A stretch of 64,000 nucleotides of DNA from Escherichia coli (lineage in GTDB: Bacteria > Pseudomonadota > Gammaproteobacteria > Enterobacterales > Enterobacteriaceae): assembly GCF_003790525.1 (NCBI RefSeq), contig NZ_CP033635.1, one strand, 5' to 3'. Positions 17,153 to 18,582 of the stretch are shown piece by piece. Below the pieces are notes generated by a model. The model saw nothing but the letters and a program-made list of their open reading frames with translations. It had not been told where the DNA came from and ran no database searches. Made by a program: the position numbers and the translations under genes. Position 1 is the stretch's first letter. The number at the start of each line of letters is the position of its first letter.

Positions 17153-18582
17153 TTAATGAACAAAACGTCCGGCACGAGACATAAATTCTTCTTCGCTCAT
17201 CTCCTGTCCGTTAAAAACAACTTTACCCGGTGTATAACGCAGCTGCAGCGAGGCGGTATTGTTGTCAATCGTGATTAACTGAAACATCTGACCTAATGTC
17301 ATCATCCCGCTGATTTGTTTATCAGCCTGCTTTTGCGCTTTTTCCGCATCCATTCCTTCAGATAAATTAAGCTGTTTTGCGGTTTCTGTGACGACATTAA
17401 GCGGTAACTTCACATCAAAATTGAGCGATTTAATATCTTTGTTTGTGGATGATGAAGATTTGGCGGGGTCGGCAATACTGATATCCAGATTGGCATTTAG
17501 TTCGCCGAGTGCGTTCTTCCATCTTACCGGTTGTTTAATGGTCGGCTCACTTTTTTGTAATAACGGTAAATACTCTTTGAACAATGCAGCATTCACTTCT
17601 TGCAGAGCAACTTCATCGTTTGCTAACTCAGGGTGTGCAGCAAGCTGCTTCTGCATCGCAATGTTATACTGGATGATAAATTGGCGCACCGCTGAGGGAT
17701 CAATAGATTCAGCAATCAATGACCACTCACCACTACCGAGTTGCTGATTCCCTTTTATTAACTTATCAAGTTCGTAGGTCAGATTGACATTGATATAATC
17801 TTTGTCTTTAACGCGATCCAGCCTGGTTTTTGCAACGAAAGCATCGATTTGGGCAACGACTTCCCCCTGGTTGATAATATTAACCTGATTAAATTTCGAC
17901 TCGCTTTCACCAACCGGAAATTTCTTTTCTTCTAATCGTGTCAGAGAATCAAAGGTAAAAATTTTCGCCGTTACTTTGTTCATTGGTGAAAATTGCAGAA
18001 CAATATCTTCGACTTTGCCTTCAATATCCAGGTTAGACAATGAACTACCATCACCATTAAAAGTAAACTGGCCCTTACCAAAGGAAAACTTTCCATACTC
18101 TGCAGGGGCAACATCTAATGTCGTGGAGAATGAGCCACCAAACGCGAACCTCAATGTCGCTTCCACGGGCGATTTATTTTTCGCGGCGATAAATAGCGGT
18201 TGTGTCAGTTCATTATTCACTAAGTTCACTTTTGCCGCTGCCAGTGCCGGGATGACATTACCATGCATTAACATTGTGATGGGCAACGGACCGTGCTCAA
18301 CATCCACATCAAATGCAACTTTCTGGCCTGGCTTGATATTGAGATCGGGTGCACCGTTATCAAATGTTATTTGCATTTGAAAATGAGAATTAAAAAAGCC
18401 TTTGTCAAAGTTTTTATAACTTAACGTCATATCGTAGGCATGTTCACCTTTTTTTTAGCATCGTTAAAATCTTTAATAAACTTTTCGACACCAGGCTGAA
18501 TTTGCGTACCTGTGTACCATGTGCCACCACCCCAGATTACGGCTAACGCAACAATAACACCTGTAGCTGACTTACGTATCAT
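17153..18582 (-). pseudogene. yihF: DUF945-family protein YihF, split by a -1 frameshift in a homopolymer (coding strand A8)
   Basis: Two overlapping minus-strand ORFs (18427-18624 and 17153-18430) in different frames. Adding one A to the A8 run (plus strand T8 at 18449-18456) fuses them: ...DAKKKGEHAYDMTLSYKNF... Confidence 0.6.

Follow-up and report, generated by a model that had tools for sequence, protein, structure and literature searches.

Lineage-specific single-base frameshifts are the commonest class of bacterial pseudogene. With the Escherichia coli examples that NCBI PGAP labels "frameshifted", the yihF locus described here shares a single-base indel in a conserved core gene, confinement to one clone, and intact orthologues elsewhere; nothing essential sets it apart from these, save that its indel appears to have removed a base between two A tracts, making a homopolymer. 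A second point of comparison is provided by contingency loci, given that the yihF homopolymer lies near the 5' end of the gene for a probable envelope protein and that tract length sets the frame. The A_AAA_AAG slippery sequence of dnaX is the strongest −1 slippery heptamer known in E. coli, and yihF has the identical heptamer in the correct phase, from which a −1 shift would give a defined, meaningful product. Lastly, poly(A) frameshifts are rescued by transcriptional slippage in pseudogene-like genes of Buchnera and Blochmannia, at a 9-nt run in Shigella mxiE, and at an A8 run in human apoB (PMC5009743, PMC1088944); yihF resembles these as a one-base-deletion allele in which the A run could gain an A in the mRNA, restoring the frame. 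In the literature searched, no function is established for YihF, and the gene is mentioned in just two connections, namely as a ChIP target of NsrR and among the matches of an overexpression screen for a D-alanine exporter, from which it dropped out.

Herein, we analysed a 64-kb stretch of E. coli DNA (the window) in which yihF is flanked by dsbA (18737-19363, minus strand) and yihG (16180-17112, plus strand). The gene occupies its orthologous position, the order mobAB-yihD-srkA-dsbA-yihF-yihG-polA being common to the window's clade, K-12, and other strains. Taken as a whole, our account is that yihF in the ST354 clade is a genuine, heritable pseudogene produced by the deletion of one base, and we hold this to be very probably correct. 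The elements of the broken gene are as follows:

17153..18582, minus strand: yihF pseudogene, entire former coding region (ATG at 18582, stop at 17153-17155; same coordinates in RefSeq for E. coli GN03551)
18449..18456, minus strand: A8 run (T8 on the plus strand), coding nucleotides 127-134, codons 43-45
18427..18582, minus strand: ORF for the truncated product, 51 codons plus TGA, comprising an N-terminal hydrophobic segment with a tail of six out-of-frame residues (VNMPTI)
17153..18430, minus strand: downstream ORF, 425 codons, lacking the N-terminal hydrophobic segment but reading the remainder of DUF945 in its original frame
18427..18430, minus strand: ATGA overlap, in which the premature TGA (18429-18427) overlaps the ATG of the downstream ORF (18430-18428)

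The region is thus covered by two minus-strand ORFs (18427-18624 and 17153-18430) that lie in different frames and overlap by 4 nt. At 18449-18456, the plus strand reads TTTTTTTT, with C and A as flanks, and the minus (coding) strand therefore carries A8. Translation from the ATG at 18582 yields MIRKSATG...DAKKKVNMPTI*, i.e., 51 codons ending in ...KKKVNMPTI. A first-pass annotation made from these letters had described the T8 run, the two overlapping frames, and the DAKKK-VNMPTI-stop reading, all of which are seen in the sequence and are accurate throughout. Homopolymers of at least 8 nt occur three times in the 64 kb; as the other two (2652-2660 and 12932-12939) are intergenic by annotation, the yihF run is the only one within a coding region. 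The longest in the window is the A9 at 2652-2660, between yihL (1775-2485) and typA (2702-4525).

The same annotation had held that one added base would give a single DUF945 protein of about 476 aa from the MIRKSATG start, and this proved correct. Insertion of one base in the run produces a continuous 476-aa protein (...DAKKKGEHAYDMTLSYKNF...), with full-length YihF reading ...DAKKKGEHAYDM... across the repaired site and a junction peptide of ...DFNDAKKKGEHAYDMTLSYK. Residues 4-464 of the repaired protein match positions 3-459 of the 460 in the Pfam DUF945 model (PF06097, DUF945 / YdgA family; E 4.7e-106), and residues 1-476 of 476 match the NCBIfam YihF equivalog NF008472 at 1026.5 bits (cut-off 738). 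The 15-residue windows of highest hydrophobicity in the entire repaired protein start at residues 2-8, and the stretch they define (residues 2-22) would be a signal peptide or membrane anchor.

Comparison with intact alleles locates the lesion. In K-12 MG1655, FDAARGOS_497, and 2014C-3075, the site reads GCT AAA AAG AAA GGT GAA CAT, versus GCT AAA AAA AAG GTG AAC ATG in the window; i.e., relative to all three the window is one base short and reaches a stop after 51 codons. Every intact allele read contains AAAAAGAAA (K-12, FDAARGOS_497, 2014C-3075, five other E. coli, and an Escherichia sp.). Since intact alleles from distant lineages all have AAA AAG AAA, the ancestral tract was A5-G-A3 and not A9. 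The net loss of a single G, placed between window positions 18452 and 18451, joined A5 and A3 into A8, such that the homopolymer appears to be the product of the mutation as opposed to its substrate. Accordingly, the single-base frameshift noted in the first-pass annotation stands, the window being one base short of intact alleles, whereas its origin at a pre-existing homopolymer does not, the run having apparently been made by the deletion.

The distribution of these alleles was surveyed with 65-66-nt queries against 5,426 complete E. coli genomes. Roughly 4,700-5,050 of the 5,426 were matchable and about 380-690 lacked a 28-nt seed, leaving the census incomplete at the level of the run. Exact matches were as follows:

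A5-G-A3 (intact) allele: 3,663 genomes
A8 on the GCT background: 24 genomes, the same set as found with the 1,601-nt search described below
A9 allele: 0 genomes
A8 on the GCG background: 0 genomes
A8 on the GGT background: 0 genomes

A further 1,382 genomes lay at 1-2 mismatches from the intact query. Five such near-match records were read, of which four were full-length and kept AAAAAGAAA, their SNPs lying beyond the run (GCT to GCG, GAT to GGT, and one ACG to ATG); in the fifth, STEC388, yihF is truncated with AAAAAGAAA still present. A degenerate Lys-Lys-Lys pattern run over species representatives returned two matches, both A5-G-A3 (an Escherichia sp. and a contig filed under Marinobacter), and was low-yield, as the peptide diverges outside Escherichia. 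Among the approximately 4,700-5,050 of 5,426 genomes matched by the short queries, A9 was not found; nor, among the genomes matched, had A8 recurred on the two other common haplotypes, GCG and GGT, which served as a test for a mutational hot spot. No intact homologue carrying an 8-nt run in a continuous frame was found either, which the first-pass annotation had proposed as grounds for abandoning the frameshift. Its implied reading of an ancestral A9 that lost an A fares poorly, as intact alleles have a G in the tract and A9 was present in none of those matched. A simple A9-to-A8 slip as the origin was thus considered and set aside as unsupported, though A9 could have existed transiently.

The pattern is compatible with one mutation having arisen on the branch leading to a single clone, and two paths to it, both possible, may be envisaged. 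In the one-step path, the G would have been deleted directly, perhaps because a polymerase passed over the lone C that separates two T tracts. In the two-step path, a synonymous AAG-to-AAA change would have created a short-lived A9, which a −1 slip during replication then shortened to A8. Both end in identical sequence. The one-step path needs fewer events and the intermediate of the other is unseen; in favour of the two-step path, runs of 9 nt are far more slip-prone than isolated bases.

Carriers of the lesion form a sharply delimited group. Using a 1,601-nt yihF stretch (window 17100-18700) as the query, with 5,423 genomes covered, 24 complete genomes were 100% identical to the window over all 1,601 nt, run included, and the next-best stood at 98.8%. 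Outside those 24, none of the 5,423 reached at least 99% over the 1,601 nt, and none of the 5,423 combined the window's yihF haplotype with an intact frame. Human, chicken, dog, and pangolin isolates are represented among the carriers, as are isolates from river or surface water and strain SMS-3-5. When genomes were ranked by identity over the adjacent 24 kb (window 20000-44000), the top 21 of the best 40 listed, at 99.8-100%, all belonged to the 24; the nearest outgroup in that list is 2014C-3075 (99.3%, intact yihF), followed by the rest at ~98.9%. Two of the three remaining carriers, CS5L and 23CRST013, have the locus at a record end. Window positions 1-50000 differ from E. coli GN03551 (NZ_CP147535.1) at one position, 40232.

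SMS-3-5, though 100% identical at yihF and with its locus not at a record end, falls outside the best 40 genomes for the adjacent 24 kb, inside which lies an rRNA operon; this could reflect a rearrangement or a recombination event close to the rrn operon, or could stem from the way in which matches are joined. In another A8 carrier, AP028310.1 (GCA_036508855.1), the yihG product has 247 residues versus 310 in other carriers, which may denote either a second lesion, this one in the adjacent acyltransferase gene, or a start site that was called differently.

SMS-3-5 is the ST354 reference genome (PMC9174282), and ST354 has been placed in phylogroup F (PMC12817139). We infer that all 24 carriers are ST354, given how closely they match SMS-3-5 at yihF and one another across the adjacent 24 kb; the carriers would thus constitute one young clone, ST354 / phylogroup F, that includes SMS-3-5. 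The yihF A8 allele is restricted to one clade.

Agreement between assemblies, not read pile-ups, makes the case that the lesion is not an artefact. All 24 carrier genomes were assembled independently and all have A8. Three further DNAs that were read, including a metagenome scaffold, match the window without a single mismatch across 2,478 nt, run included, and the index of a public assembly collection lists the exact 425-aa downstream product in 611 blocks. RefSeq, for its part, lists yihF as a "frameshifted" pseudogene in all three carrier records inspected (SMS-3-5, LS45, and GN03551), and in this sense the yihF pseudogene itself is already known. The lesion hence displays the features by which frameshift pseudogenes are recognized, i.e., an indel that is not a multiple of three relative to intact orthologues, and presence in independent assemblies.

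We propose the following sequence of events. In the ancestor of the ST354 clone, yihF would have lost the G of codon 44, so that codons beyond Lys45 are read in another frame. A ribosome starting at the normal ATG would then terminate after 51 codons, leaving the hydrophobic export/anchor segment followed by six wrong residues, while the remaining 425 codons of DUF945 would be out of frame and devoid of an export signal. As the frameshift follows Lys45, the primary product would be the hydrophobic segment plus a short tail, with DUF945 not made in frame. The allele would thus be a loss-of-function pseudogene that has been inherited clonally with no further decay. The view in the first-pass annotation that a genuine single-base frameshift inactivates yihF is borne out as far as the lesion is concerned, with its presence in 24 complete genomes and a stop after 51 codons; inactivation itself is deduced from the truncation, which predicts that the A8 allele is a functional null or near-null. 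Termination-reinitiation at the ATGA (18430-18427) is conceivable, though its product would be without an export signal.

A modest qualification to this null or near-null state arises from the sequence in which the frame breaks, for which two further features are pertinent:

18448..18454, minus strand: A_AAA_AAG heptamer, coding nucleotides 129-135 (phase 2), in X_XXY_YYZ phase with the upstream frame
18455..18457, minus strand: TAA in the −1 frame, coding nucleotides 126-128, directly 5' of the heptamer and marking the upstream limit for rescue

The heptamer owes its in-phase position to the deletion, and a simulated −1 slip at it returns the ribosome to the original frame and gives exactly the 476-aa protein. 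With the zero frame stopping 9 codons on, the sole window for suppression spans 9 codons (coding nucleotides 129-156), at the start of which sits the heptamer. A second AAAAAAG, at coding nucleotide 1027, is not in X_XXY_YYZ phase in the frame used there and is therefore irrelevant. No Shine-Dalgarno (SD)-like motif lies within the 30 nt upstream of the heptamer, and the predicted fold of the 69 nt downstream is no more stable than that of shuffled sequence (MFE −6.5 kcal/mol, z = +0.41 vs shuffles), i.e., with no sign of a stimulatory structure. In published measurements, V_VVA_AAG heptamers without stimulators shift at ~0.3%, rising to ~3.7% in the best 3' context (PMC4066793, from which the heptamer properties used here are drawn), and aggregate suppression of single-bp deletions amounted to 1-10% in two test proteins (PMC10861913). 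Transcriptional insertions climb exponentially with A/T run length (PMC5574713), and efficient slippage by bacterial RNA polymerase is documented for runs of at least 9 nt (PMC5009743, PMC1088944). It is accordingly plausible that a little full-length YihF, from about 0.3% to a few percent, is still made, either through a −1 ribosomal slip or through RNA polymerase adding an A in A8; with no stimulatory elements, at most a low leak is expected.

Whether such a leak would matter to the cell defines the first alternatives to a pseudogene. One is a low-output allele, in which loss of the G made a tract that restores the frame in a small but functionally relevant fraction of products, with a lower YihF dose tolerated or favoured in multidrug-resistant ST354; we regard this as very unlikely. 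Its stronger form posits functional recoding, with −1 frameshifting at A_AAA_AAG or transcriptional slippage maintaining a selected low level of YihF, making the allele a hypomorph and not a pseudogene. This could draw on (i) the presence of the dnaX heptamer, in the right phase and at the start of the only 9-codon window able to give the wild-type protein, (ii) the basal leak of 0.3% to a few percent expected from the literature, and (iii) the fact that yihF has accumulated no further lesions. Yet dnaX has an upstream SD-like element and a downstream stem-loop, whereas the yihF site has neither and is not conserved beyond one clone; moreover, a −1 shift in dnaX makes a second product, while in yihF it would repair a mutation. 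Of the properties that mark programmed −1 sites of the dnaX / IS3 type, an in-phase heptamer is present, but a stimulator and conservation, the hallmark of such sites, are absent. The two-ORF arrangement exists only in the 24 genomes of one clone, with all other E. coli read having a single ORF with AAAAAGAAA, or in STEC388 a truncated one. The lack of decay is explained by the youth of the clone, in which divergence is no more than 0.2% over the adjacent 24 kb, and the yihF run of 8 nt falls under the 9 nt of efficient transcriptional slippage, setting it apart from the slippage-rescued poly(A) genes. We thus view selected recoding as highly improbable. Nothing suggests that the leak is programmed or selected, as stimulators are absent, the site is limited to one clone, and this clone is too young for lack of decay to count.

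Phase variation, in which slipped-strand changes in the length of the A run would toggle YihF on and off as at a contingency locus, was raised in the first-pass annotation. An 8-nt A/T tract early in the gene for an envelope protein is the right type of sequence for this, and a +1 slip would restore the frame. Nonetheless, while contingency loci have a homopolymer in the coding region, as does yihF, they also display tract-length polymorphism among close isolates, and the 24 carriers of this haplotype (24/24) are uniformly A8, with perfect scores over 1,601 nt. No A9 was found in the genomes searched, the tract is interrupted by a G in other E. coli and hence missing from the rest of the species, and, among the genomes matched, A8 was absent on the GCG and GGT backgrounds. 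With A8 in all carriers of a haplotype seen nowhere else than in one clade, and no recurrence elsewhere, we judge the toggling of YihF to be extremely improbable. That the true genome has nine bases, of which a base-caller or polisher lost one, an error likewise raised in the first-pass annotation, is a reading we consider virtually excluded even with 8-nt homopolymers being a classic indel-error site on some platforms and with assembled sequence alone having been examined, because the identical sequence recurs in 24 independent complete genomes from diverse hosts and sources, in the three further DNAs (metagenome scaffold included), and in the 611 index blocks, because the intact state is A5-G-A3, such that an error would have to drop a G reproducibly and solely in one clade, and because none of the 5,423 genomes covered has the window haplotype together with an intact frame.

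With yihF in ST354 best read as a clonally inherited pseudogene, what our analysis adds to the existing RefSeq annotation is that the homopolymer appears to be the product of the mutation, that the allele offers a clean marker for the ST354 clade, and that it provides a natural test case for unprogrammed frameshift suppression. ST354, SMS-3-5 included, is widespread in clinical and agricultural settings and would constitute a naturally occurring knockout, or else a strong knockdown, of yihF, which could be useful should a function ever be assigned to the DUF945 / YdgA family. The locus also serves as a caution that a frameshift "at a homopolymer" need be neither slippage-born nor a sequencing error. 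Beyond bookkeeping, the yihF pseudogene matters little.

Candidate regulatory elements in and around the broken gene are as follows:

18299..18321, minus strand: NsrR-site-like 11-1-11 inverted repeat, AAGTTGCATTTGATGTGGATGTT, at yihF coding nucleotides 262-284, two substitutions from the CFT073 motif
18694..18719, minus strand: hairpin resembling an intrinsic terminator of dsbA, upstream of yihF, with an 11-pair stem plus T-run (consensus match only)
17115..17148, no strand assigned: 14-pair hairpin between the convergent yihF and yihG genes (consensus match only)

An NsrR site inside yihF was detected via ChIP-seq in CFT073 and ChIP-chip in K-12 (PMC5320621), and the locus may still bind NsrR despite the broken gene. 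The 17115..17148 hairpin is likely a terminator shared by yihF and yihG. Upstream of yihF, potential promoters reach only 9/12 consensus matches, no more than shuffles give, and none is claimed.

Several observations were made outside this allele. STEC388 (NZ_CP041425.1, 1-447) represents a separate inactivation of yihF, in which the N-terminal ~40 codons have been swapped for foreign DNA beside a gene for "protein mom", suggestive of a Mu-like prophage; yihF sequence takes over from the foreign DNA a few bases 5' of AAAAAGAAA, and RefSeq lists the gene as "incomplete; missing N-terminus". The contig filed under Marinobacter sp. B9-2 (PYVH01000177.1; 2.5 kb, 2.5x coverage) has an E. coli-type yihF, which agrees with E. 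coli alleles in the 85 nt read around the site; the contig has probably entered the Marinobacter assembly as contamination from E. coli. Elsewhere in the window, a full-length CsrC sRNA (11492-11745, minus strand; Rfam RF00084, 277.9 bits) encloses positions 11553-11719, at which RefSeq for GN03551 has a pseudo-CDS labelled "hypothetical protein, frameshifted; internal stop"; an sRNA gene has most likely been miscalled as protein-coding here. A full-length Spot 42 sRNA (12774-12892, minus strand; RF00021, 122.8 bits) is located between yihA and polA, and the intergenic T8 at 12932-12939 lies just upstream of it.
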